DNA of 11,885 bases from Myxococcota bacterium (lineage in GTDB: Bacteria > Myxococcota_A > Polyangia > Polyangiales > Sandaracinaceae): NCBI GenBank assembly GCA_036149055.1, contig JAYZQJ010000250.1, positions 1 through 11,885 of the forward strand, in the 5' to 3' direction. The translations under genes and the position numbers were made by a program. Shown here piece after piece: positions 242 to 11,885 of the stretch (within the stretch, counting starts at the first letter, position 1; each line of letters starts with the position of its first letter). The notes under the pieces were generated by a model. The model was not told the DNA's origin. It made no database searches and was given only the letters and a program-made list of their open reading frames with translations.

Positions 242-300
242 TGTCGACGCTGGACTCGTAGGTCGTTCGCCTACGTAAGTTCACAAGTTCACTCCGTCCC

Positions 301-534
301 CCCCTCCTCCGGCGACCCGAGGGCGGGCATCACGCCATCGTGGTCACGGGACTCATCTGGGACCGGACACTCCCGGACGAGTTTCAGATGGTCGACATCG
401 TCGACCCGGCTATCGGACCGGACACCATCTCGCTTCGCCGGTTGTACCAGTGGGTCACTCCCGACCTCCGCGAGTGCAACGTGCTCTTCAAGCTCGGCAA
501 CCGCCGTGCTGCGCCACGTGAGGTGAGGGAGTGA
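301..534 (+). pseudogene. C-terminal fragment of a papain-like (peptidase C39-like) domain protein
   Basis: Extending ORF 340..534 upstream gives GGHHAIVVTGLIWDRT...MVDIVDPAIG, matching the GHxxVxxG...VxIxDP pattern of C39-like peptidases. There is an in-frame TAG at 259-261 and no N-terminal half carrying the catalytic Cys. The stop overlaps the next GTG start (GTGA coupling). Confidence 0.5.
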
Positions 535-1253
535 CGGGACCGCTGGCGATGGTCTGCGCTCTGACCGTTCTCTGCGCCGCGTGCAGCGAGGAGCTGCCGC
601 GGCGCGCGCTCGTTCAGGTCGCGCTGCCCATGTGTGCTTCGTCCGATCCGAGCGCCGAGCCGACGTTCTCGATCGACCTCGACGGGCGGGTGTACTGGCC
701 GGGTGGGCTCTGGAAAGAGAAGCACCCGATCGAGCGGACGGCGTGGCTCGACGAGCTCGAGGTCCTCCTACGCAACGCGCCGGGCCGGCCGACGCTCGCC
801 ATCGATTCGCGGCACTCCTTCCAGCGGCTGAACCTCATCCTGTGGGCCGCCCACCGCGCCGGGCAGGAGATCATGCTCCTCACCCAGCATCGGGGCGAGC
901 GCCACGCGATCCCGATCGCGATGACCGAGCCCCCGCCGTCCTCCCTCGTGCTCCAGGTGTGGTGGGGCGGGGACGACATCATCCTCGAGCACGGGACTCT
1001 TCGGCCGCGCCCCGAGGAGGTGGTCAGCGCACCTCGAGGGGACGCCGGGGAGCGCGAGGTCCAGGGCGCGCTGTCGGCGCGCACGGCGGAGGTGTTCATC
1101 CTTCGAGAGCGCTCCCGCGATCTGGGCTGGCCGCTGAAGCCGCCGCTGCGTCTGCTGTGCGCGGGGCGCGCCCGTGTCGATCGCGTCGTGGTGCGTCCGG
1201 ATCTCGTGGTCTTCGACGAAGCCGCCGAGCGCGACCGACGGGACCGCGAATGA
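531..1253 (+). CDS. Putative lipoprotein with an ExbD/TolR-like periplasmic domain, possibly C-terminally truncated
   Basis: Hydrophobic N-terminus ending VLCAAC (lipobox-like). VQVALP...FSIDLDGRVYW...LAIDSRHSFQRLNLILWAAHRAG follows the ExbD pattern. GAGG-rich SD upstream. The stop codon lies inside 32-bp repeat copy 1. Confidence 0.6.
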   Translation: MTGPLAMVCALTVLCAACSEELPRRALVQVALPMCASSDPSAEPTFSIDLDGRVYWPGGLWKEKHPIERTAWLDELEVLLRNAPGRPTLAIDSRHSFQRLNLILWAAHRAGQEIMLLTQHRGERHAIPIAMTEPPPSSLVLQVWWGGDDIILEHGTLRPRPEEVVSAPRGDAGEREVQGALSARTAEVFILRERSRDLGWPLKPPLRLLCAGRARVDRVVVRPDLVVFDEAAERDRRDRE

Positions 1254-1278
1254 CGATATGACGACGAGCGTCCCCGGG
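1247..1278 (+). repeat. 32-bp repeat copy R1
   Basis: CGAATGACGATATGACGACGAGCGTCCCCGGG, exact consensus. Confidence 0.95.
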
Positions 1279-1363
1279 GCGGTGCTCGCGGGCGCAGGAC
1301 GAGGCCCGTGACGATGAGGCCCATCATCACCCCCCAGTAGGCGGTCTGGATCGTGTGGTTCAT
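1279..1363 (-). pseudogene. Short hydrophobic gene remnant (MNHTIQTAYWGVMMGLIVTGLVLRPRAP) running into R1
   Basis: ATG overlaps the stop of 1360..2205 (ATGA). It encodes one TM-like segment, then the frame enters the repeat and becomes Arg/Ser-rich shadow-ORF sequence. Confidence 0.4.
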
Positions 1364-2205
1364 GGGGCGATGGGGATCCTCGCGGCGAGCCACGCGGCCG
1401 CGGCCATGGCGAGGAGGAAGAGGTGGGCGAGCTCCCGTCGACGGACGAGCTCCGAGGCGACGGCGCCGGCGAGCGCGGCGGTCGCCATCATCCAGAGAAT
1501 GCCGGGGATCGGCCAGAGCTCACCGCCGATGACGGGCGGCCCGGCCTCCGCCAGGTGACGGGCGCCACGCGTGATCGCGGCCCCGCGCGCGGTCAGCGCG
1601 ATCACCGGAGCCATCAGCGCGATCGCGCACACGGCGGCTCCTCGCACCCACCCGTCGCGTCGTCGCGACACCAGCGCGCCGATCGTGAGCGGCGCGCTCC
1701 AGAGCCAAAGCCGCGGCGTCCACAGGCCGGCGGCGCAGCTCGCCAACCCCACCGCGGCGGCCAGCAGGTCCCACCGGTCGCGCGGCCTCAGCCGGTCCCG
1801 GAGCTCCGCCGCGACCAGCGCAGCGGCCGTGACGAGGGCGCCGAAAGCGCACGCCTCGACCCAAGCGACGCGGCACGCCGCCGTCAGCCGCGCCGGGAGG
1901 GACGGGTCGTCGATCGGGTGCCAGAGCGCTTCCCAGGCGAGCGCGACCAGCGGCAGCCCGGCGGGCGCGAGCAGGAGCGCGCGTCGCTCGAGCCAGACGA
2001 GCCCGACGCCCGCGAGCGCGGCGCCGAGCCCGACCGGGACGAGCGCGCCGCCCCAGCGGGAGAGCCCCTCTCCGGCGTGCGCTGGGTGCACGACCCACCC
2101 GACGGCGCAGAAGCCGAGGAACCACGTGACGGCGATGACGGCTGGGGCCCAGCGAAGGGCTCGATGCTCGTAGGTCGACGCGGCGTGGCTGCTCGTTGAT
2201 CGCAT
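1360..2205 (-). CDS. Hypothetical multi-pass membrane protein (281 aa)
   Basis: Many hydrophobic Ala/Leu/Val/Trp segments; GGGAG SD 4 nt before ATG; GC-rich third positions. Confidence 0.75.
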   Translation of the reverse strand: MRSTSSHAASTYEHRALRWAPAVIAVTWFLGFCAVGWVVHPAHAGEGLSRWGGALVPVGLGAALAGVGLVWLERRALLLAPAGLPLVALAWEALWHPIDDPSLPARLTAACRVAWVEACAFGALVTAAALVAAELRDRLRPRDRWDLLAAAVGLASCAAGLWTPRLWLWSAPLTIGALVSRRRDGWVRGAAVCAIALMAPVIALTARGAAITRGARHLAEAGPPVIGGELWPIPGILWMMATAALAGAVASELVRRRELAHLFLLAMAAAAWLAARIPIAP

Positions 2206-2241
2206 GGCGCTCCCATCGGCGGCGCCGCGGCGCGGTTGCGC
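2199..2241. repeat. 43-bp perfect direct repeat, copy A (ATCGCATGGCGCTCCCATCGGCGGCGCCGCGGCGCGGTTGCGC)
   Basis: Identical to 3365-3407. On the minus strand it contains the GGGAG SD and ATG of gene 1360..2205. Confidence 0.9.
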
Positions 2242-2296
2242 CTGACGAGGCGGGCGGCGCGCATCACGACTCCCTCGGTCCGAGCGGCGGGGACCA

Positions 2297-2328
2297 CGAA
2301 TGACGATATGACGACGAGCGTCCCCGGG
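2297..2328 (+). repeat. 32-bp repeat copy R2
   Basis: Exact consensus. Preceded by GGGACCA (R1 has GGGACCG). Confidence 0.95.
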
Positions 2329-2411
2329 ATCCGTCGAACACTTCGCGTCACTGATCGGACATCGGACGACAGGGCAGGGGGCCGTCGCCGGGAGCCGCGT
2401 AGCTCACCGGC

Positions 2412-3296
2412 ATGACACGCCTCACTTCATTCGCGTTCGTCGCCCTGATCCTCGCGTCCGCCTGCGGGCGCCAGGAGCCCCCGCCGGACCCCGGGCCGAT
2501 CGAGCCCCGGCTCCTCGCCCATCGCTGGGAGGGGAGCGTGCTCCGGGTCGACGAGCTCCCCACGGCGGAGCTCGAGGTCTCGACCCTGTCCGGCTCGATC
2601 GTCGTTGCGCACACGGGCTGGCCGTACGGGACGAGGATCCTCGTGGGGGCCGAGGTGCTCGAGGGGCGCGCCCTGCTGGAACGGCCGGACCTCGTTCCGC
2701 TGTTCGGCGAGGTGAGCCTCTCGGGGCTCGAGGACCCGGAGGGAAGCCCGTGGCGCCGGTCTCTACCGATTCGTATCGAGCCCGGAGAGGAGTGGCTCCC
2801 GATCGAGGTGGAGTCGCCGCCCGTCGAGCTCACGCAGCTCGCCGCGTTGCGCGCGATCGGGGCCGCGATGCGCGAGGAGGGGGCTCATCCGAATGGGTTC
2901 CTGTTCGAAGGCGAGCCCGAGGGCGACCGTCGCGACACCGCGCTCGTCGACTGGGCGGTCAGCGAGGACGCCGACCGGCGCATCTTCGGCGAGGGCACGG
3001 TCGCGCGAGAGATCGACTGGGTGATCCGCGAGCGCCGAGAGCCGACCGGAGAGAGCCAGCTCTGTGGCGGCTACTCCAACCCCGGCACGCCGGGGACCAC
3101 CGACGTTCGAATCACGCTGAACGAGTCGGTGTTGGTGGTCCGCGACCGACGAACCGGCGCCGAGGTCGCGCGCGAGCGTTTCCCCGCGTCGCGACGATGC
3201 CCGCGGATGGCCTATGTGGAGGGCGGCTCGACCGGCTCCGACCTGCGACCGATGCAGCGGTGGGTGGAGCGCTGGGTCGACGAGAACGCCGACTGA
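2412..3296 (+). CDS. Hypothetical lipoprotein (294 aa)
   Basis: Signal peptide MTRLTSFAFVALILASAC with lipobox, Pro-rich linker, typical composition, two C-terminal Cys. No family recognised. Confidence 0.8.
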   Translation: MTRLTSFAFVALILASACGRQEPPPDPGPIEPRLLAHRWEGSVLRVDELPTAELEVSTLSGSIVVAHTGWPYGTRILVGAEVLEGRALLERPDLVPLFGEVSLSGLEDPEGSPWRRSLPIRIEPGEEWLPIEVESPPVELTQLAALRAIGAAMREEGAHPNGFLFEGEPEGDRRDTALVDWAVSEDADRRIFGEGTVAREIDWVIRERREPTGESQLCGGYSNPGTPGTTDVRITLNESVLVVRDRRTGAEVARERFPASRRCPRMAYVEGGSTGSDLRPMQRWVERWVDENAD

Positions 3297-3315
3297 AGCG
3301 AGGTCGGGAGACGCG

Positions 3316-3347
3316 CGAATGACGGTATGACGACGAGCGTCCCCGGG
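3316..3347 (+). repeat. 32-bp repeat copy R3
   Basis: 31/32 match (A>G at 3325). Confidence 0.95.
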
Positions 3348-3364
3348 GCTGCGGCGAACGGTCC

Positions 3365-3407
3365 ATCGCATGGCGCTCCCATCGGCGGCGCCGCGGCGCG
3401 GTTGCGC
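3365..3407. repeat. 43-bp perfect direct repeat, copy B
   Basis: Identical to 2199-2241; starts 17 bp after R3. Confidence 0.9.
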
Positions 3408-3515
3408 GTCTCATGAACGTCCGGCGCGTCGGCGCCGATTCACGCGATGACGACGCGTCTCGCGCCGCCGTGGAGGCGCGTGTAAGGTCTGCGTGCCCCG
3501 GACGTTGGGAGCACA

Positions 3516-4946
3516 GTGCAGTCACCACTCCCGCCGCCCGCGCGCTCGTTCCGCGTTCTGCTCCTGTGCCTGATGAGCGCCCCGCTCGTCCTCGGCGCTC
3601 GCTGTGGGGAGCCCCTCGGCGCCGCGGAGCCGCCGCGTCCGCCACCGCCGCCCTACGCGGTGGTCTCCGCGGCGTCGAGCCCCGCCGTCGTGTTCGTCGC
3701 GCCGTCTCCGACGCCGGATGCTCCGGGCTCCATGACGTACGTCCTCCTGGAGGTCGACGGCACCGTCGTCGCTTCGCGCCGACTGGCCGCCGATGTGTTC
3801 CCCGGGAATGTGGATGATGACCGCGCAACCCTCGAACAGTTCGTAGGCGCTCGGGACACGGCAGACCTTCGAGCAGTGTTCGAGTCGCCGGAGCTCGGTC
3901 GCTTCCCGACGTCGCCTGGGGTGATCAGGCCGCGCCGGACCTGCCACACGGAGCGGTCCTCCCTGGTCTGTGTCGGTGAGGGAGGACGGGAGACCCGCGT
4001 CGACCTGAGCGGGGACTCCTCGCGATGCCCGATGATCCTGAACCGGACGCTGTTCGCCTCGGCGACCGGCGATCGCGTCGCCGGGTGGAGCGCGTCGTCG
4101 TGTCCCGTCGACGGCTCGAACCACCGCTACGCGTTGCACCGCGTGACCTTCGGCGCGTCCGGCGACCCGACCGTGCACACGGAGGACTTCGGGTACCCCA
4201 CACGTGAGCTCGCCCTCTCGCTGCGCGATGACGGGTCCGCCCTCGCGTGGGCGCCACCGACCTGGTATCGGGCCCGAGCGGGAGAGGACTTCGCGGCTGT
4301 CCGGTCCGGGGAGCCCGAGGGCATCGTGGACTCGATTCACCCGGTGGGCGCCACCGGGTGGGTCGCCGTCTCCCTCCATCGAGACGATCCCAGACCGGCG
4401 GCGCTGCGGTTCCTCGACGCGACCGCCGCGCCGGTCCGCGCTCCTCTGGAGATGGACAACGTGCTCGCCGCGAGGGCGGTCGACGAGCAGCTGCTCGTCG
4501 TGCGCACGGTCGGCGACCACATCGGGCTGGTTCGCCTGGACGCAGACGGCTCGATCTCCTCTTCGCTCGTCGTCCCGGCTCCCCGCGCGCGGTCGGCGAA
4601 CGCGAGGGGGCTGGCCCGGGAGAGGCCGCTCGCCCGATGCGTGATCAGCAGGGCCGTGTGGGTCACGGAGCGATCCCGCGACAGCGCGATGCTGGTGATG
4701 AACTACCCGGCGGACAGCCGGCACGACTACGAGACCAGGGCCTATCAGGAGCTCTACGAGGTAGAGGTCGACGATCGCGTGCGAGCCGCGATCGCGGCGC
4801 TCGTGCGGACGCCGGGCGGCGGTCAGGTGGGAGCCGCGGTCATCGCCCGCGAGGACGAGCGGTCGCCGTGGCGACTCGTGGTCGACGCCGCCGGGTGCCC
4901 CGGCGAAGTGCCGACGAGCCTCGAATTCCCGACTGGGCGAAGGTAG
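3516..4946 (+). CDS. Hypothetical exported protein, possibly a lipoprotein, beta-strand rich (476 aa)
   Basis: GGGAG SD before GTG; hydrophobic leader ending LVLGARC; poly-Pro linker; repeated short beta-strand-like motifs (LVRLDADG) suggest a propeller-like fold (inference). Confidence 0.7.
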   Translation: MQSPLPPPARSFRVLLLCLMSAPLVLGARCGEPLGAAEPPRPPPPPYAVVSAASSPAVVFVAPSPTPDAPGSMTYVLLEVDGTVVASRRLAADVFPGNVDDDRATLEQFVGARDTADLRAVFESPELGRFPTSPGVIRPRRTCHTERSSLVCVGEGGRETRVDLSGDSSRCPMILNRTLFASATGDRVAGWSASSCPVDGSNHRYALHRVTFGASGDPTVHTEDFGYPTRELALSLRDDGSALAWAPPTWYRARAGEDFAAVRSGEPEGIVDSIHPVGATGWVAVSLHRDDPRPAALRFLDATAAPVRAPLEMDNVLAARAVDEQLLVVRTVGDHIGLVRLDADGSISSSLVVPAPRARSANARGLARERPLARCVISRAVWVTERSRDSAMLVMNYPADSRHDYETRAYQELYEVEVDDRVRAAIAALVRTPGGGQVGAAVIAREDERSPWRLVVDAAGCPGEVPTSLEFPTGRR

Positions 4947-5130
4947 GCGGCTGCCGCCTCCACGTCCCGGCCCCCGGGGGACCACGGGCACTCCAACCTG
5001 ACGCGAGAGATGCACGCTGTCGTCTCGCTCCACCGGCGCGTGAGCAGGTGGTCGTCACCCACGTGGGCCCGGCCCGCCGAGACCACGGCCGGACCCGAGA
5101 GCTGAGCGGAGATCAGGGCGCGTCGTCGCG

Positions 5131-5136
5131 TACAAT
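5131..5136 (+). promoter_or_regulatory. Putative -10 box TACAAT, leaderless promoter
   Basis: Near-consensus hexamer in very GC-rich DNA, 7 nt before GTG at 5144; no SD. Confidence 0.5.
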
Positions 5137-5143
5137 ACGCGGC

Positions 5144-5617
5144 GTGAAGGCCGAACCGACTCACCGCTCGCCGATCACCGTCCGGGAGGACGGGCCGGTG
5201 ACGATCACGGTCTTCGACGGCGAGCAGCAGGAGGCCGATGTCGACGCCTACCTGGAGACCCTCCGCGAGCTCCACGAACGCGACCGGCCCTACATCGGCG
5301 CGTCCCTGATGCTGCGGTACTCGGCGGCGCCCGGTCAGCTCCGGCGCGTCGGGGAGTGGATGCGCGAGCACAAGCGAGATGTCGCGCGGCTGTGCGTGGG
5401 CAGCGCGATCATCGCGCCGAGCGTGGGGTTTCGCTTCGTGCTGTCGAGTCTCTTCATGATCCAGCGCATGCCGATGCCGTACACGGTCGTGTCCGGGGCG
5501 CGCGAGGCGGCCGAGTGGATCGAGCTCCGCGCGCGGTCGGTCGATCTCCGCGTGCCCGACGACCTCGCCGCGGTGCTCGCCGAGGAGCTGCGCGGGCGAG
5601 GGTACGACGCGGGCTGA
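5144..5617 (+). CDS. STAS/SEC14 (SpoIIAA-like) domain protein (157 aa)
   Basis: Real part of ORF 4247..5617. The pattern RVGEWMREH...LCVGSAIIAPSVGFRFVLSSLF...PMPYTVVSGAREAAEW is typical of this family, which is expanded in myxobacteria. Confidence 0.75.
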   Translation: MKAEPTHRSPITVREDGPVTITVFDGEQQEADVDAYLETLRELHERDRPYIGASLMLRYSAAPGQLRRVGEWMREHKRDVARLCVGSAIIAPSVGFRFVLSSLFMIQRMPMPYTVVSGAREAAEWIELRARSVDLRVPDDLAAVLAEELRGRGYDAG

Positions 5618-5684
5618 GAGGTCTGGCCCTGCGGAATCCGGGGCGGGCGTGCCGGGCCGGGCGTGGTCATGGCAAGGTGGCGGG

Positions 5685-6671
5685 ATGGCGGACGTAGCGG
5701 GGGCGACCCTCGAGCTCGACGATGGCGCGATGAGCCACCCGAGCCTCGCCGCGCTGCCTTCCATCGGGCTGTACGGCAGCCCCGTGACGATCCGGGGGCT
5801 GAGCATCCTCGCGTGCCGGGACCTGCCGGAGCTCGGCTCGCTGTCGCTCTACATGTCGGACTACGGGCCGGAGCTGGTCGACGTGCTCGCGGCGGCGCCG
5901 TGGCGGGAGGGGCTCTGGTCCCTGAACGTCTGCGGCAACCGGCTCGGCGCCGACGGGATGCGCGCGCTCATGAAGCTCCCCTGGCCGCGGCTCATCGGGC
6001 TCGCGGCCGGCTACGACGGGCTGGGGGACGACGGCGCGCTCGCCGTGGCCGACGCGGGGCTCCCCAGGCTGTCGACGCTCAACCTGCGGTCGAACGGGAT
6101 CGGCGCGCGGGGCGCGGCCGCGCTGTCGACGCGGTACGCGGCGCAGCTCGTGGACCTCGGGCTGGAGGACAACGCGCTCGGGGACGAGGGGATCGACGCG
6201 CTCCGGCGCGCGCCGTTCGAGCGCCTCCAGCGGCTGGACGTGCGCGACTGCGGGGCTCACGCGCGCTCGCTGGCGGACGCGCCGTGGGCCGCGAAGCTGC
6301 GCACCCTCGACGAGGGCGAGACGACGGGCCCCAGCCCCGGCGACGGCGCCGCCCAGTGGCGCGTGCGCCTCGCGATCCGTCCCCGCAACCAGCCGTCCGC
6401 CGTCGAGCGGATCGTGATCGGGGAGCGCATCACCATCGGGCGGACGCCCGGCTGCAGCGTCGAGCTGTTCGCCATGAACGTGCACCGCGTGCACGCCTGG
6501 CTCGAGGGGCGCGGAGACCACCTCGCGGTCGTCGACAACCGCTCGTCGAACGGCACGTACCACAACGGGCGCAAGGTGCCGCCGGAGGGCCGACGCGTGG
6601 TCCCGGGCGACTGGGTCGGCGTCGGCGGCTACCAGCTCCACGTGCTGGAGTACGCGCCGACCGGCTCGTGA
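5685..6671 (+). CDS. Leucine-rich-repeat protein with C-terminal FHA domain
   Basis: RI-like LRRs (LSTLNLRSNGIGARGAAAL, LVDLGLEDNALGDEGIDAL). FHA motifs IGR...H...DNRSSNGTYHNG...GDWVGVG. ATG 5685 preferred over GTG 5649; start uncertain. Confidence 0.85.
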   Translation: MADVAGATLELDDGAMSHPSLAALPSIGLYGSPVTIRGLSILACRDLPELGSLSLYMSDYGPELVDVLAAAPWREGLWSLNVCGNRLGADGMRALMKLPWPRLIGLAAGYDGLGDDGALAVADAGLPRLSTLNLRSNGIGARGAAALSTRYAAQLVDLGLEDNALGDEGIDALRRAPFERLQRLDVRDCGAHARSLADAPWAAKLRTLDEGETTGPSPGDGAAQWRVRLAIRPRNQPSAVERIVIGERITIGRTPGCSVELFAMNVHRVHAWLEGRGDHLAVVDNRSSNGTYHNGRKVPPEGRRVVPGDWVGVGGYQLHVLEYAPTGS

Positions 6672-6674
6672 GCG

Positions 6675-7583
6675 TTACAGCCGCGCGTGATCCTGGACGG
6701 CGAAGGTGTCGCACTGGCGGGCGTCGCCGGTGTCGAAGCCGCGGCGGAACCAGCGGATGCGCTGCTCGCTCGAGCCGTGGGTGAAGGTCGCCTCGTCGGC
6801 GTGGCCGAGGGCGTCGTCGCCGATGGAGTGGGCCGCCTGGGTCGCCTCGGCGAGGTCGGCGTCGGTGATGGAGAGCGAGGAGCGGGCGAAGTGGCCCCAC
6901 ACGCCGGCGAGGCAGTCGGCCTGCAGCTCCACGCGCACGGAGACCTGGGCGTCGCTCTCGCCGCGCACGCCGAGGCGGGTGGAGCCGATGAGGTTCTGCA
7001 CGTGGTGGCCGACCTCGTGGGCGATGACGTAGGCCTGCGCGAAGTCGCCGGGCGCGTCGAGGCGGCGGGCGAGGGTGCGGTAGAAGTCCGGGTCGATGTA
7101 GAGCCGGTTGTCGGCCGGGCAGTAGAAGGGGCCGACCGCGCTGGTGGCGTTGCCGCAGCCGCCGGTGGAGACGGCGCCCGAGAAGACGACGAGGGTCGGC
7201 GCCTGGTAGCTCGCGGGCGCGCCGCCGCCGTAGCTGGGGAGGCGCCGCTGCGCGAACTGGGCCGCCCAGACGTCCTCGGTCGAGGCGAGCACGACGCGCG
7301 AGAAGTCGCAGGCGTCGGCGTACTCCTGGGACGCCGCGCACACGCTGGAGCCCGAGGTCGCGACCTGTCCGCCGGAGCCGCCGAGGAGCTGGCGCACCGA
7401 GTCCGGGGCCAGGAAATAGACGCCGGCGCCGACCACCGCGAGCACGAGCACGCCGGGGATGCCGAACTTCCGGAGCACGATCGAGAAGAGGAAGTAGGCG
7501 AGGCCTCCGGCTCCCGCCCGGCCGGCGCGGCCCGCGCCGCGATCCTCGAAGTTCTCCGATCGCCGATGTCCGTCGATGTCCAT
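6675..7583 (-). CDS. ypfJ: YpfJ-family neutral zinc metallopeptidase
   Basis: RRSENFEDR-G N-terminus, one TM segment, GPFYCPAD, GDFAQAYVIAHEVGHHVQ (HEXXH), ELQADCLAG, FTHGSSEQR...CDTF. GAGGTGG SD. Confidence 0.93.
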   Translation of the reverse strand: MDIDGHRRSENFEDRGAGRAGRAGAGGLAYFLFSIVLRKFGIPGVLVLAVVGAGVYFLAPDSVRQLLGGSGGQVATSGSSVCAASQEYADACDFSRVVLASTEDVWAAQFAQRRLPSYGGGAPASYQAPTLVVFSGAVSTGGCGNATSAVGPFYCPADNRLYIDPDFYRTLARRLDAPGDFAQAYVIAHEVGHHVQNLIGSTRLGVRGESDAQVSVRVELQADCLAGVWGHFARSSLSITDADLAEATQAAHSIGDDALGHADEATFTHGSSEQRIRWFRRGFDTGDARQCDTFAVQDHARL

Positions 7584-7707
7584 TCGCCCACCTCACCCAA
7601 CAGATGCCCCGCGGTTGTGCGCGACCGGAGCGCGGCGCGCCACCCGAGACACGGGGTGAGATAGGCCCGCTCGGAGATTCGCACCCGCGATCCGCCCCCG
7701 CTCGCGG

Positions 7708-7713
7708 TATCCT
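7708..7713 (+). promoter_or_regulatory. Putative -10 box TATCCT upstream of the GAF gene
   Basis: TAnnnT hexamer in the divergent intergenic region, 26 nt before ATG. Confidence 0.3.
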
Positions 7714-7739
7714 CCCGATTCACCGAGAAGTACCCCGCC

Positions 7740-8303
7740 ATGGACACCGACAAAGTCATCGCCGCCTCCAAGAGCCTCCTCCGCTCCGCGTTCGACCAGG
7801 CCGCGCTGGTCGAGTTCCTCGGCCAGATCGGGGCCAGCGTCGGCGCGGACCGCGCCTACGTCTTCGAGAACGAGGACACGCCCGACGGCCGCACGCTCGC
7901 CCACCAGCGCTACGAGTGGAACAGCGGCGCCGCCGAGGCGCAGATCGACAACCCGGAGCTCCAGGGCCTGGTGATGAGCGACCTGCTCGCGCACTGGCTG
8001 GAGTCCTTCGAGCGCGGCGAGCCGCTCTTCGGGATCGTGCGCGAGATGACCCCCGCCGACCGGGAGATCCTCGGCCCGCAGGACATCCTCTCGATCCTCG
8101 TCTGCCCCATCCGGGTGCGCGGCGAGGTCTGGGGCTTCGTCGGCTTCGACGACTGCACGCGCGAGCGGGTGTGGACGACCGAAGAGCGAGGCGTGCTCAG
8201 CGTCGCCTCGAACGCCCTCGCGGCCGCGCTCCGCCACCGTCAGGTCTCGGCCGGCCTCGCCGCCTCACGCAGCGCGCTGCGCAAGGCCATCGGCGGCCCG
8301 TAG
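7740..8303 (+). CDS. Stand-alone GAF domain protein (187 aa)
   Basis: GADRAYVFEN, YEW, ILSILVCPI...VWGFVGFDDC...RVW are characteristic GAF motifs of the kind found in sensor kinases. No output domain. Confidence 0.88.
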   Translation: MDTDKVIAASKSLLRSAFDQAALVEFLGQIGASVGADRAYVFENEDTPDGRTLAHQRYEWNSGAAEAQIDNPELQGLVMSDLLAHWLESFERGEPLFGIVREMTPADREILGPQDILSILVCPIRVRGEVWGFVGFDDCTRERVWTTEERGVLSVASNALAAALRHRQVSAGLAASRSALRKAIGGP

Positions 8304-8315
8304 ACCCGGCTCGCC

Positions 8316-9716
8316 TCACTCGGGGAAGGGGATGTCCTGCCGGCCGGCCTCCGCGCGGAGGCGGGCGATGAGCGCGTCGTCGGCGGTCTCGGGCGTGTAG
8401 GGGTACTCGGCGGAGGCGTCGAAGACGGCGTCGGGCATGTGCTCGGTGAACTCGATCTCGTCGCCCGGGACCGGGCGCTCGAGGTTGCCGATGAAGCGCG
8501 CCGCGCCGCGGTCGGGGCCCTCATGAATGACCCTGTGGCCGATGGGGCCCATCGGCATGAAGACGTTGTTCTCGACGAGGAGCTGCCCCGGCGCGATGCT
8601 GACCTCCATGGCGCGGCTGACGCGCCAGTTGAAGAGGTTGTTGAACGAGTGCGCCCAGCCCTTGCGGATCAAGGGCATGCGCTGCTCACACGCCTCGTAC
8701 CAGTTGTGGTGCGCGGTCCAGCGCATGGTCTCCCCGTCGCCGCTGGGCGAGGACGCGCCCACGAGCATCGTGAAGACGTGGTTGCGGATGTGCGTGTACG
8801 AGATGGTCACCTCGGTCACGCCCTCGGTCGCGTCGAACGCGCCGTCGCGGCCGCGCTCGAGGTCCATGTGGTGCACCCACATGCGCCGGCCGCCCGCGGT
8901 GAAGCGGATGAGGTCGTCGGCGGTGTCCCGCACGCCGAAGTGGGTGAGGACGACGTTGCCCCGGCCGCCCCGGACGTAGAGACCGAAGCCGGTCACGGTC
9001 ACGTCGGCCCCGCGCCCGTCGATGGTCTTGTCGCTCTCGACGTCGATCGGCGAGCGCAGCGCGATCTCGCCGCTCACCCGGAACCGGATCCACGCCGGCC
9101 CGGTCGCCTCCGCCGCCGCGCGCAGCGAGCCGGGGCCGTCGTCGGCCAGCGTGGTGACCTCGACGATCGGCCCGCCCGCGCCGCCGGTGGTGAACCGCCC
9201 GAAGCCGACCCGCTCGTCGAGGATGCGCTCGTGCGGGGGGCGGGGATCGGCGGCGTCGACCGGCGGCCCGGCGTCGGGCGCGCCGGCGTCGGTCGCCTCC
9301 CCGCCGCACACGCAGTAGTCGGAGCCGTGCCCGGTGTCGGCGCACCCGAGCGCGGGCAGGTCGGTGCGCGGCTCGCAGGCGCCGGGCCGGTCGTCGTAGC
9401 TCGCGGTGCACGGGCGTCCGAGCGCCGCGCAGACCTCCGCGCAGCCCGCGCCGTCCTCGAAGACCACCTCGCACCGCGCCCCGTCCTCTCCGCTGTCCTC
9501 TCTGCAGAGCGACCAGCCGCGGTCCGCCGCCACCTCGGCGCACGACGGCAGCGCGCCCGCGTCGTCGGCGACCCGGGCGTCCATCGGGGCGACGCGCGCG
9601 TCCATGGGCGCGACGCGTGCGTCCTCGGCGGCGCGGCCGGCGTCCTCGGCGGGCTCCGGGTCACCGCAGGCGGCGAGGGTGAGCGACAGGATCGACCAGG
9701 CGAGCGTTCGGAGCAT
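8316..9716 (-). CDS. Polysaccharide lyase family 1 (pectate lyase-like) lipoprotein, paralog A
   Basis: Lipobox LAAC; Cys-rich domain; GFGRFTTGG, DDGPGSLR, SDKTIDGRG, WVHH, DGAFD, QRMPLIR (RxPxxR), HSFNN. Confidence 0.9.
   Translation of the reverse strand: MLRTLAWSILSLTLAACGDPEPAEDAGRAAEDARVAPMDARVAPMDARVADDAGALPSCAEVAADRGWSLCREDSGEDGARCEVVFEDGAGCAEVCAALGRPCTASYDDRPGACEPRTDLPALGCADTGHGSDYCVCGGEATDAGAPDAGPPVDAADPRPPHERILDERVGFGRFTTGGAGGPIVEVTTLADDGPGSLRAAAEATGPAWIRFRVSGEIALRSPIDVESDKTIDGRGADVTVTGFGLYVRGGRGNVVLTHFGVRDTADDLIRFTAGGRRMWVHHMDLERGRDGAFDATEGVTEVTISYTHIRNHVFTMLVGASSPSGDGETMRWTAHHNWYEACEQRMPLIRKGWAHSFNNLFNWRVSRAMEVSIAPGQLLVENNVFMPMGPIGHRVIHEGPDRGAARFIGNLERPVPGDEIEFTEHMPDAVFDASAEYPYTPETADDALIARLRAEAGRQDIPFPE
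9568..9623 (-). repeat. In-frame 21-bp tandem repeat encoding (DARVAPM) about 2.7 times
   Basis: Protein reads EDARVAPMDARVAPMDARVADDAG; the units differ at synonymous positions. Confidence 0.8.
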
Positions 9717-9799
9717 GCGGCCTCGATGGCGAGAGTTCCTGCGCCGAGGCTACACGAGCGCCGTCCGCCGAGGCGAGAGGCCCCCCTCACTGCGCCCCC

Positions 9800-11170
9800 T
9801 CACTCTGGAAACGGGACGTCTTGCCGGCCGGCCTCGGCGCGGAGGCGGGCGATGAGCGCGTCGTCGGCGGTCTCGAGCGTGTAGGGGTACTCGGCGGACG
9901 CGTCGAAGACCGCGCTCGGCATGTGCTCGGTGAACTCGATCATGTCGCCGGAGAGCGGCCGCTCGAGGTTGCCGCGCAGCCGCACCGCGCCGCGACCGGC
10001 TCCCTCGCTGACGACCTTGTGGCCGACGTTGGTCTGGGGCGCGAGCACGTTGTTCTCGACCAGCATCTGCCCGGGCGAGATGCGCACGCTCATCGCGGTG
10101 CCGCTGCGCCACTCGATGAGGTTGTTGAACGAGTGCGCCCAGCCCATGCGGATGAACGGCAGGCGCTGCACACAGTTCTCGTACCAGTTGTGGTGCCCGG
10201 TCCAGCGCATGCCCGCGCCGTCGCCGGTGTCCGAGCCGGCGCCCACCAGCATGGCCTTGTCGTGGTTGCGGATGTGGGTGAACGAGATGGTCACCTCGGT
10301 CACGCCCTCGGTCGCGTCGAACGCGCCGTCGCCGCCGTTCTCGAGGTCCATGTGGTGCACCCACATGCGCGCGCCGCCGTCATGGAAGCGGATGAGGTCG
10401 TTGGACGTGTCGCGGATCCCGAAGTGGGTCAGGATCACGTTGCCGCGGCCGCCCTGCACGAAGAGGCCCTCGCCGGTGACCGTGACGTCGGCGCCGCGCC
10501 CGTCGATGGTCTTGTCGCTCTCGACCATGATCGGGCTGGCGAGCGCGATCTCGCCGCTCACCCGGAAGCGGATCCACGCCGGCCCGCTCGCCTCCGCCGC
10601 CGCGCGCAGTGACCCGGGCCCGTCGTCGGCCAGCGTGGTGACCTCGACGATCGGCCCGCCCGCGCCCCCGGTGGTGAAGCGCCCGAAGCCGACGCGCTCG
10701 TCGAGGATCCGCTCGTGCGGCGCGAGCGAGCCCCCGCCGTCGACCGGCGGCCCCGCGTCCGGCGGCCCCGCGTCCGCCGCGACCGCCTCTCCGCACACGC
10801 AGTAGTCCGAGCCGTGCCCGGTGTCGCCGCACCCGAGCGCCGGCAGATCGCGCTGGGCCTCACACGCGCCCGGCTGATCCTCGTAGCTCTCCGCGCACGC
10901 GCGCCCGAGCGCCGCGCAGACCTCGGCGCAGCCCGCGCCGTCCTCGAAGACCACCTCGCACCGGGCCCCCGCCTCCGCGCAGACCGACCACCCGCGCGCC
11001 TCCGCGACCTCGGCGCAAGACGGCGGCGCCCCCGCGTCGTCCTCCGGCGTCGTCGCGTCCATGCCCGGCGCGCGCGCGTCCACCGCGCGGCCGCCATCTT
11101 CGGTGTCGTCGGAGCCGCCGCACGCGACGAGCGCGAGCGACAGGAGCGAGGCGGCGAGCGTGCGGGTCAC
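9800..11170 (-). CDS. Polysaccharide lyase family 1 (pectate lyase) lipoprotein, paralog B
   Basis: Lipobox LVAC; same architecture as paralog A; canonical HDKAMLVG and QRLPFIR motifs. Confidence 0.92.
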   Translation of the reverse strand: MTRTLAASLLSLALVACGGSDDTEDGGRAVDARAPGMDATTPEDDAGAPPSCAEVAEARGWSVCAEAGARCEVVFEDGAGCAEVCAALGRACAESYEDQPGACEAQRDLPALGCGDTGHGSDYCVCGEAVAADAGPPDAGPPVDGGGSLAPHERILDERVGFGRFTTGGAGGPIVEVTTLADDGPGSLRAAAEASGPAWIRFRVSGEIALASPIMVESDKTIDGRGADVTVTGEGLFVQGGRGNVILTHFGIRDTSNDLIRFHDGGARMWVHHMDLENGGDGAFDATEGVTEVTISFTHIRNHDKAMLVGAGSDTGDGAGMRWTGHHNWYENCVQRLPFIRMGWAHSFNNLIEWRSGTAMSVRISPGQMLVENNVLAPQTNVGHKVVSEGAGRGAVRLRGNLERPLSGDMIEFTEHMPSAVFDASAEYPYTLETADDALIARLRAEAGRQDVPFPE

Positions 11171-11176
11171 CGGCTC

Positions 11177-11182
11177 ACGCTA
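11177..11182 (-). promoter_or_regulatory. Putative -10 box TAGCGT, leaderless promoter of PL1 paralog B
   Basis: TAnnnT 6 nt before the GTG start; no convincing SD. Confidence 0.4.
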
Positions 11183-11236
11183 CCAGCGCGCCGGACCCTC
11201 CGGGCCGCCGGAATCGTACGCCGTACGAGACCCCGC

Positions 11237-11533
11237 TCACCGCTTCTCTCGCGGCGGGAGGAAGAAGTGGTCGCGCATCCGCCGGAGGAAGTCGGTCTCG
11301 ATCGGGTAGCCCGACGCCGATCCGATGACCGCGTCGATCCCGCACTTGGGGCAGAGCGCGGTGTCGCTGCCGATCCACTCCTCGATCGCGTCGAACGAGT
11401 AGATCTGTGCGCACGAGAAGCACCCGCACGCCGCGCTCCGCCGCAGCACCTCACGGTGCGCGTCGCACCACGTGTGCGCGTTCACGATGTCGACGGCCAG
11501 GTCGCCCGACGGCGGCAGCTTCTGTCTCGGCAT
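11237..11533 (-). CDS. Small conserved-type Cys-rich (zinc-ribbon-like) hypothetical protein (98 aa)
   Basis: CGCFSC...EWI...TALCPKCGIDAVIG...FLRRM...FF resembles a widespread uncharacterised small-protein family. AGGTGAGG SD before ATG. Confidence 0.85.
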   Translation of the reverse strand: MPRQKLPPSGDLAVDIVNAHTWCDAHREVLRRSAACGCFSCAQIYSFDAIEEWIGSDTALCPKCGIDAVIGSASGYPIETDFLRRMRDHFFLPPREKR

Positions 11534-11550
11534 GCCTCACCTTACGTGAG

Positions 11551-11714
11551 CTCGGGGACGCTCGTCGTCATATCGTCATTCGCCGTCAGGGGAGGGCCCG
11601 GGGACGCTCGTCGTCATATCGTCATTCGCCGTCGACTCGACCCGCCTCCCGCACCGCGGTCGCGATGAAGTCGGGGAGGGGCCCCGGGGACGCTCGTCGT
11701 CATATCGTCATTCG
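11551..11714 (-). repeat. Cluster of three reverse-orientation copies of the 32-bp repeat (R4 11551-11582, R5 11597-11628, R6 11683-11714)
   Basis: CCCGGGGACGCTCGTCGTCATATCGTCATTCG. R5 and R6 are exact and R4 has one mismatch (11552). Intervening sequences are 14 and 54 bp. Confidence 0.95.
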
Positions 11715-11885
11715 ATCTCGACTCGATGGCTCCTGGTCCGCGGGCCCTCAGGAGGTGGCAAACAATGGCGCCGAGGCACCCCCGCCCGCTTCCACGACAC
11801 TGACCCGAGACGACGGCAGGCGACGAGCGCAGCGAGGTCGCCGCACGCGCCACTCGAGTCGTTCGATCCCGCGGCAGCGGGCGGC

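Follow-up and report, generated by a model that had tools for sequence, protein, structure and literature searches.

TIRtrons are elements in which the gene of a Y1 transposase (TIRYT) lies between inverted repeats placed near the gene ends (Di Nocera, De Gregorio, Rocco 2013; PMC3733652); the available portion of that paper gives GGGGWSAS as a motif common to some, not all, of these terminal inverted repeats (TIRs). Here we analyse 11,885 nucleotides of a Myxococcota bacterium of the family Sandaracinaceae (the whole of contig JAYZQJ010000250.1, assembly GCA_036149055.1; hereafter the window), in which an initial annotation, made from the sequence alone, had noted three direct repeats about 1 kb apart and proposed that they might serve an undescribed gene-cassette system with its enzyme encoded elsewhere. 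Comparison with related genomes shows that, judged by sequence, the repeat is the TIR of a TIRtron, with an HUH/Y1 transposase gene between inverted GGGGAC-ended repeats. The proposal was thus right in placing the enzyme, a RAYT-like HUH transposase, elsewhere, and wrong in taking the site as undescribed, to go by the accessible text of PMC3733652. The repeat family is new, and its kind, the TIRtron, has already been described; this analysis adds alleles compared between strains and junctions mapped relative to the repeat, with a positive result in one species and a non-significant one in the other. On balance we think it probable, with some reserve, that this new TIRtron repeat family is a rearrangement hot spot, and a dedicated cassette system for these repeats is possible.

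The assembly that holds the window (G000, with the window as its contig C250) comprises 9.9 Mb in 289 contigs, has 73% G+C and is 96% complete; its genes were called with a codon model of our own. Gene content, Atlas neighbours and run labels suggest a marine myxobacterium. We surveyed 61 genomes for the repeat core at up to 3 mismatches, with the reversed pattern as control; one unpublished genome (G023) enters the tallies across genomes only, and no claim is built on it. In the window, R1 (1247–1278), R2 (2297–2328) and R3 (3316–3347) all lie on the + strand, their starts 1050 and 1019 bp apart and R3 one base different from R1 and R2, exactly as the initial annotation had reported. The 32 bp given there reduce to a conserved core of 27 bp with sharp edges, AATGACGATATGACGACGAGCGTCCCC in R1 (1249–1275), the reverse complement of which starts with GGGGAC, as TIRtron ends do. 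The R2 core (2299–2325) has both of its 400-nt flanks unchanged in another strain of the species as well, and the R3 core (3318–3344) carries one substitution. The window holds six core copies, and the three on the − strand near its right end had been missed: one in a tandem cluster at 11554–11580, one at 11600–11626 that has a 41-nt flank in common with a copy on contig C194, and one at 11686–11712. Also missed was a decayed head-to-head pair at 39–96 (71% to the core), of which the ends alone are recognisable and which aligns with an intact pair and its flank in a same-species strain.

Across G000 we identified 34 exact copies of the core, 56 at up to 1 substitution, 59 at up to 2, 60 at up to 4 and 61 at up to 5, spread over 22 contigs. 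The reversed pattern had 0 matches in all 61 genomes, which places the repeat far beyond chance. All but one of 60 copies are intergenic (59/60), and they form 38 sites, consisting of single copies, tandem runs and broken head-to-head pairs at contig ends; 23 of the 60 lie less than 1 kb from a contig end, in zones that make up 5.8% of the genome. The initial annotation had suggested tabulating the repeat across the genome and its relatives: the core is present in 6 of the 61 genomes, namely G000 (60 copies), its sister species in the same genus, G001 (88), G017 (81), G044 (4), G051 (4) and G024 (1), and in relatives it flanks TIRYT genes, as detailed below. In the G001 loci read, most copies are paired as head-to-head dyads of 87 bp. 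Sites of this family are clustered, with another site less than 3.5 kb away for 20 of 38, compared with 12/47, 0/59, 0/28, 0/30 and 0/42 for the other five GGGGAC families. Genes beside the repeat fit the codon use of the host worst (median 0.261, against 0.334 for 7654 genes; genes are not independent of one another).

The assignment to TIRtrons follows from the position of the repeat in relatives, where it flanks Y1 transposase genes as an inverted pair. One such pair in G017 encloses a single gene of 296 aa. Homologs of this transposase were identified in 30 of the 61 genomes, of which 18 best-scoring, near full-length homologs were chosen for alignment. An inverted pair of NGGGAC-starting repeats (at least 19 of 27 positions matching) lies at the ends of 16 of these 18 genes, each with a variant of its own, and all 16 paired TIRs begin with NGGGACG. 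The TIRs nearest to the window repeat are those of the genes on G001 C101 and G017 C150 (3 mismatches each), G051 C29 (5 mismatches) and in G024 (8 mismatches), and these four genes fall, together with the G000 gene on C209, into one well-supported clade of 8. The residues H60-x-H62 and Y120 are invariant (18/18 homologs), and 17/18 match NF047646, the model for REP-associated tyrosine transposases (RAYTs). An alignment-based structure model (predicted local distance difference test score, pLDDT, 88) has TnpA-REP (PDB 4ER8) as its best fold match (E = 2.9 × 10−7), followed by IS200/IS608 transposases, whereas the single-sequence fold was uninformative (pLDDT 39). The C-terminus of the enzyme matches DnaA domain IV by profile (E = 4 × 10−5), with weak Bac_DnaA_C and HTH_23/38 matches for single clade members; Pfam Y1_Tnp misses the closest members of the clade, which are too diverged. 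An exact-pattern scan of wider genome contigs gave 0 matches, in a set that possibly leaves out the own and near genomes, and when the G001 enzyme was scanned for as a single protein, 0 of 71 candidates were confirmed. In G032 (L059), a perfect 170-bp direct duplication (1047–1216 and 2636–2805) encloses a TIRtron and recalls a 43-bp duplication in the window (see below); target duplications of such length may be characteristic of the TIRYT enzyme.

The enzyme has the layout of TnpA-Y1 subclass 2.1, subgroup 2.1.2, as set out in the accessible part of Quentin et al. 2018 (PMC6006769), and subclass 2.1 corresponds to RAYT group 1 in what is available of Bertels et al. 2017 (10.1101/119735). It agrees with the passages on subclass 2.1 in PMC6006769 in the HuH–Tyr distance (58 residues here; published median 58–67), in a conserved Ser after the Tyr, in a C-terminal DnaA-like helix-turn-helix and in having no REP hairpin. 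The copy number differs: the commonest flanking 16-mer of group 1 averages 12 copies in a genome according to the available part of 10.1101/119735, against 60–100 per genome here. To published TIRtrons, as far as the portion of PMC3733652 at hand describes them, the likeness extends to the GGGGWS start, to TIRs dispersed as singles, dimers and groups, and to the presence in one genome of several TIRYTs, every one having a TIR to itself; the seventh motif base, however, is G here and not A, and the same portion of the text describes neither cargo arrays nor alleles of different strains nor arrays of co-oriented dyads. REPs and REPINs with their RAYT (the REPtron; TnpA-REP, PDB 4ER8) likewise have extragenic repeats, head-to-head dimers, tandem runs and a single-copy HUH enzyme, but the window repeat lacks the GTAG/GTGG foot, has its CGTC internally and hardly folds as a single arm (−3.0 kcal/mol), and the enzyme here appears to carry an extra DNA-binding tail. 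The REP-like dispersed repeat that the initial annotation had offered as the simpler alternative therefore agrees with the data as a dispersed family, not in the hairpin and GTAG foot of a REP.

Arrays in G001 resemble integron cassette arrays and clusters of attC sites lacking integron integrases (CALINs) in layout: their dyads form hairpins, are co-oriented and specific to the array, and stand between short genes of accessory and toxin–antitoxin type, and their content varies between strains, but they have no attC boxes, their genes are in mixed orientation and their junctions are imprecise, 0–33 nt from the site. As the initial annotation had held, the repeat is neither an attC site nor part of a CRISPR array: the attC ends RYYYAAC and GTTRRRY occur in neither the core nor the 87-bp dyad, the repeat has no Rfam match, and the spacers of tandem runs resemble each other (cas genes were not searched for). 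None of 6 genomes, G000 and five relatives, has an integron integrase over the TIGR02249 cut-off. A literature search that covered listings and abstract openings turned up no account of cargo arrays at TIRYT repeats.

Two TIRYT genes are present in G000, one on C209 and one on C63; the TIR of either gene differs from the window repeat and is dispersed as well (32 and 66 copies at up to 4 mismatches). The interval of G000 that corresponds to the TIRtron site of G001 contains other genes and no repeat. The enzyme matching the G000 copies may have been lost, may be unassembled, or may have its place taken in trans by the C209 enzyme, which is related. G000 also contains seven similar Y1_Tnp genes of another group (L083–L089, on C132, C4, C83, C116, C198, C143 and C29), several of them at contig ends and none with a GGGGAC-type inverted pair seen, and three more long Y1-like genes on C7, C195 and C268. 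At least five GGGGAC-ended repeat families occur together in this genome, compared with two assembled TIRYT genes, and on C80 different families stand side by side.

To compare strains of the window's species we used contig Ga0310345_10000404 (the other strain), which matches window positions 1278–3364 in one piece (98.3%) and positions 5065–11885 at 98%. Misassembly, which the initial annotation had named as a way in which its idea might fail, is countered for the R2–R3 part by this independent contig. The other strain has no repeat at the position of R1, and a 94-aa membrane-protein gene runs through; in G000 this gene is truncated 12–15 nt past the R1 end, which leaves its first 24 codons (1291–1363, − strand). 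The 'short remnant' of the initial annotation is thus real, and is the start of a gene which the other strain has in full. The 12-nt flank of R1 (1276–1287, + strand) is found in the other strain next to a repeat copy 3.9 kb further upstream. From the alignment, the R1 region of G000 resembles the outcome of a deletion next to a TIR, beginning just outside it and reaching into a gene, and more than one event is needed, as the DNA to the left of that TIR differs too. Past R3, the other strain has a different block of 1179 bp with a polysaccharide-lyase gene instead of positions 3365–5064, which start 20 nt past R3. The G000 block begins with a perfect 43-bp copy (3365–3407) of positions 2199–2241 (+ strand), a duplication found in this window and nowhere else in the genome, and contains a 476-aa orphan gene (3516–4946). 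R2, the lipoprotein gene behind it and R3 are unchanged in the other strain and are covered in runs of three other studies. In such runs the left R1 junction was recovered from X2, X7 and X13 and the right one from X7 and X13, and among the pieces listed none bridges R1; cover of 3365–5064 is low in X2, X7 and X13, which is no proof of absence. Excision as an explanation of read joints between R1 and R2 was rejected, since these joints stem from other repeat copies.

In all, 21 of 67 alignment ends between G000 and the other strain lie within 30 nt of a repeat, a zone that contains 2.6% of bases. We set this raw enrichment aside because it mostly reflects gains and losses of tandem copies and because the proper null is intergenic DNA. 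We listed by hand the 20 differences of at least 500 bp, excluding regions inside other repeats, contig ends and changes below 500 bp, and identified 7 of the 20 with an end within 33 nt of a repeat. Alignments show that repeat copies themselves have been gained and lost between strains. Among 41 pairs of copies with a common flank, 28 diverge 11–22 nt past the CCCC end (lengths below 11 are invisible to the method), whereas 0 of 20,000 random pairs passed the same flank score. We also tested whether cuts fall at a constant 20 nt beyond the GGGG end; this is not supported, as orthologous copies break on both sides. An IS66 element on C25 (L005 1061–3514) lies between two repeat copies with 20–22 nt of common flank on each side. 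Precise single-gene insertions without a repeat and with little or no target duplication occur elsewhere in G000 (C88 70113–71631 and 74373–76091; C80 13999–16682).

In the sister species, we compared 26 regions of G001, not the whole of it, with 18 metagenome contigs not assigned to the species of G000, 15 of which matched. Dyads stand at most gene junctions of the G001 arrays, co-oriented and with an array-specific spacer (10/10 in L034 and 6/6 in L036). Of 19 internal alignment ends, 13 fall within 35 nt of a dyad, compared with 29% of non-coding aligned bases (p = 5 × 10−4, a value to be read in the knowledge that ends are not independent and that paired ends are single events). A filled site with two repeats and its empty counterpart with one were observed once, in L134, where one dyad stands in place of 3.2 kb; RecA could explain this case. 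Other cargo begins 5, 23 and 4 nt from a dyad in L148, L173 and L191, respectively, and in L176 two dyads enclose 1033 bp that G001 has as a single copy without dyads. For L148 and L191, the alternative cargo was not found at near identity in G001, which argues against simple jumps to another locus, although not against all mis-joins. Cargo of the arrays includes AbiEi/AbiEii, HIT and pRiA4b ORF3 genes. Four-helix-bundle (23S_rRNA_IVP) genes that contain low-complexity tracts form a multicopy unit no more than about 1 kb from the repeat, in G000 as well as in G001 (L001 6070–6441, L005 185–523, L041 and L044–L047). These genes and IS66 were considered as partners of the repeat and dropped, as the repeat is not carried as their ends; a reading of the repeat as an extracytoplasmic function (ECF) promoter was dropped because its 'spacer' is fully conserved.

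Under the hot-spot reading, TIRYT is predicted, from the HUH chemistry of its family and from its tail, to bind the TIR via the DnaA-like helix-turn-helix, to nick single-stranded DNA up to about 20 nt from the TIR and to rejoin it nearby. Rejoining would copy the TIR together with 10–20 nt of flank and so give rise to tandem runs, head-to-head pairs and array-specific variants, and occasionally it would lead to adjacent deletions or to the joining of new DNA. Copies would accumulate in accessory islands, where they are tolerated, and would there be frequent, not obligatory, breakpoints, with the host's own recombination, acting on co-oriented copies such as the dyads (about 100 bp), helping to delete or exchange blocks. 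Some gene-scale junctions do lie 0–33 nt from a repeat. Several results weigh against this reading. The NF047646 scores, where shown, are below the cut-off (28 and 33 bits vs 80), and the repeat (GGGGACGC) matches the GGGGWSAS motif at 7 of 8 positions only. G044 has 4 near copies, and the one TIRYT examined there with both ends has a TIR that is 12 mismatches off. The matching TIRYT gene was not found in G000 by tblastn or with a hidden Markov model of the clade in six frames of the 96% complete assembly, so that the window copies are gene-less ends, as far as the assembly goes; here the window family differs from published TIRtrons in persisting without its gene in the assembly. Nor was the matching enzyme found in 60 metagenome loci around the repeat. 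In the window's species the enrichment at repeats is not significant (p = 0.29; 7 of 35 ends, or 10 of 35 counting both ends) when compared with the intergenic bases of repeat-selected loci, 15.5% of which are within 33 nt of a repeat. Junctions occur on both sides of the TIR, with no single fixed cut site, and the literature, in the parts accessible, yielded no biochemistry on TIRYT enzymes.

A more far-reaching possibility, which we regard as doubtful, is that TIRYT and TIR dyads together constitute an integron-like platform for gene capture run by a single-strand HUH transposase: foreign or nearby DNA would be joined up to about 20 nt from a TIR with duplication of the site, so that genes of accessory, defence and surface-protein type would come to stand in co-oriented arrays differing from strain to strain, which would give RAYT group 1 a function useful to the host. 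A dedicated HUH-driven cassette system, in which a dyad or single TIR would be the attachment site and TIRYT would insert, excise and reorder cargo while duplicating the site, seems unlikely to us. The array layout in L034 and L036, the empty, alternative-cargo and 1033-bp alleles, the excess of ends near dyads, the cargo without near-identical counterpart in G001 and the presence of AbiEi/AbiEii, HIT and pRiA4b ORF3 genes are all in its favour. However, for 13 of the 20 gene-scale differences in the window's species neither end lies at a repeat, and orthologous cargo is bordered by a repeat in one species only (for example at distances of 17 vs 2365, 138 vs 681 and 1576 vs 58 nt). Neither the orientation of the genes nor the ends of the cassettes are fixed, assembled contigs of the G000 species showed no circle and no exact pair of filled and empty sites, the two largest G001 arrays do not have the TIRYT gene next to them, and the sister-species contigs, 1.2–5.2 kb long, may be mis-joined at repeats. 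The cassette idea of the initial annotation accordingly fared unevenly: the clustering in islands, the strain junction at R1, the new block 20 nt past R3 and the sister-species alleles speak for it, whereas R1–R2 and R2–R3 were not seen as excisable, R2, its gene and R3 are the same in the other strain, cargo borders are not kept, and single-repeat empty sites, which it had proposed looking for, amounted to L134 in the sister species and none among the 20 events in the window's species.

That the repeats are instead a passive dispersed family of TIRs or miniature inverted-repeat transposable elements, landing in roomy intergenic DNA, surviving in islands and contributing to gene flux through occasional RecA deletions only, with the breaks due to chance or assembly, we consider quite unlikely. 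Such a family would accommodate the precise gene-sized indels far from repeats (1.5 and 1.7 kb on C88, 2.7 kb on C80), the crowding of copies towards contig ends, the compatibility of L134 with a RecA deletion between two direct dyads, and a conserved intergenic site (L039 vs C47) that has window-type dyads in G001 and another TIR family in G000. It does not accommodate the R1 junction, which is within a gene, has 12 nt of the flank of another copy and is not explained by homologous recombination, the lack of clustering in four of the five other GGGGAC families, or the new unique DNA joined 4–23 nt from dyads in the sister species. Highly improbable, and largely refuted, is a reading of the repeat as the site of another enzyme, be it an integron integrase, a shufflon-type recombinase or a DDE transposase such as that of IS66. 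The IS66 on C25, with a copy on either side, and the IS630-like gene that adjoins three copies in G001 point towards it, but no integron integrase passes the cut-off in G000 and five relatives, repeat and dyad have no attC ends, IS66 is not seen beside the matching copies in the other strain, and the repeat directly flanks TIRYT genes. The wider question is what RAYT-type transposases do for their hosts, and a testable set is at hand: an intact 296-aa enzyme with its TIR in the sister species, filled, empty and alternative alleles, and junctions 0–33 nt from the repeat. Should the enzyme make these junctions, accessory genes could be built into arrays by a second route, in addition to that of integrons; should it not, the family would be just another set of repeats marking plastic islands and interrupting assemblies.

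The genes around R1–R3 were called as in the initial annotation, with the membrane-protein gene on the − strand and the lipoprotein gene on the + strand. An orphan lipoprotein-like gene (531–1253, + strand, start at 531 or 549) has its stop codon inside R1, and its homolog in G001 (45% identical) has no repeat behind it. The label 'ExbD-like' that it had been given is unsupported, since it has no Pfam or NCBIfam match and an Atlas lead (0.85) to a cluster with 34% ExbD. The 281-aa orphan membrane protein between R1 and R2 (1360–2205, − strand) has a paralog (56%) on C155, a contig without any repeat copy. The 294-aa orphan lipoprotein between R2 and R3 (2412–3296, + strand), used as query, was not found in 31 other genomes of the family, and the protein database has one 98% cluster for it. 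No Pfam or NCBIfam match was obtained for the four cargo genes, and their Atlas clusters are unnamed only.

A copy of a second GGGGAC-ended family lies at 282–301 (+ strand; 65 copies at up to 3 mismatches to the 20-mer), for which no matching transposase gene was found. Positions 11752–11885 are the start of a longer dispersed repeat, about 300 bp in the other strain and without Rfam match, with 85 matches of at least 100 nt in G000, of which 59 are less than 1 kb from a contig end. A 64-codon open reading frame at 340–534 is kept together with the next gene in G001 (72% and 64%); as an IS fragment takes the place of its front in one G001 copy, it may be the tail of a longer gene. Finally, positions 8316–9716 and 9800–11170 are tandem paralogous pectate-lyase lipoprotein genes, 81–84% identical in DNA.

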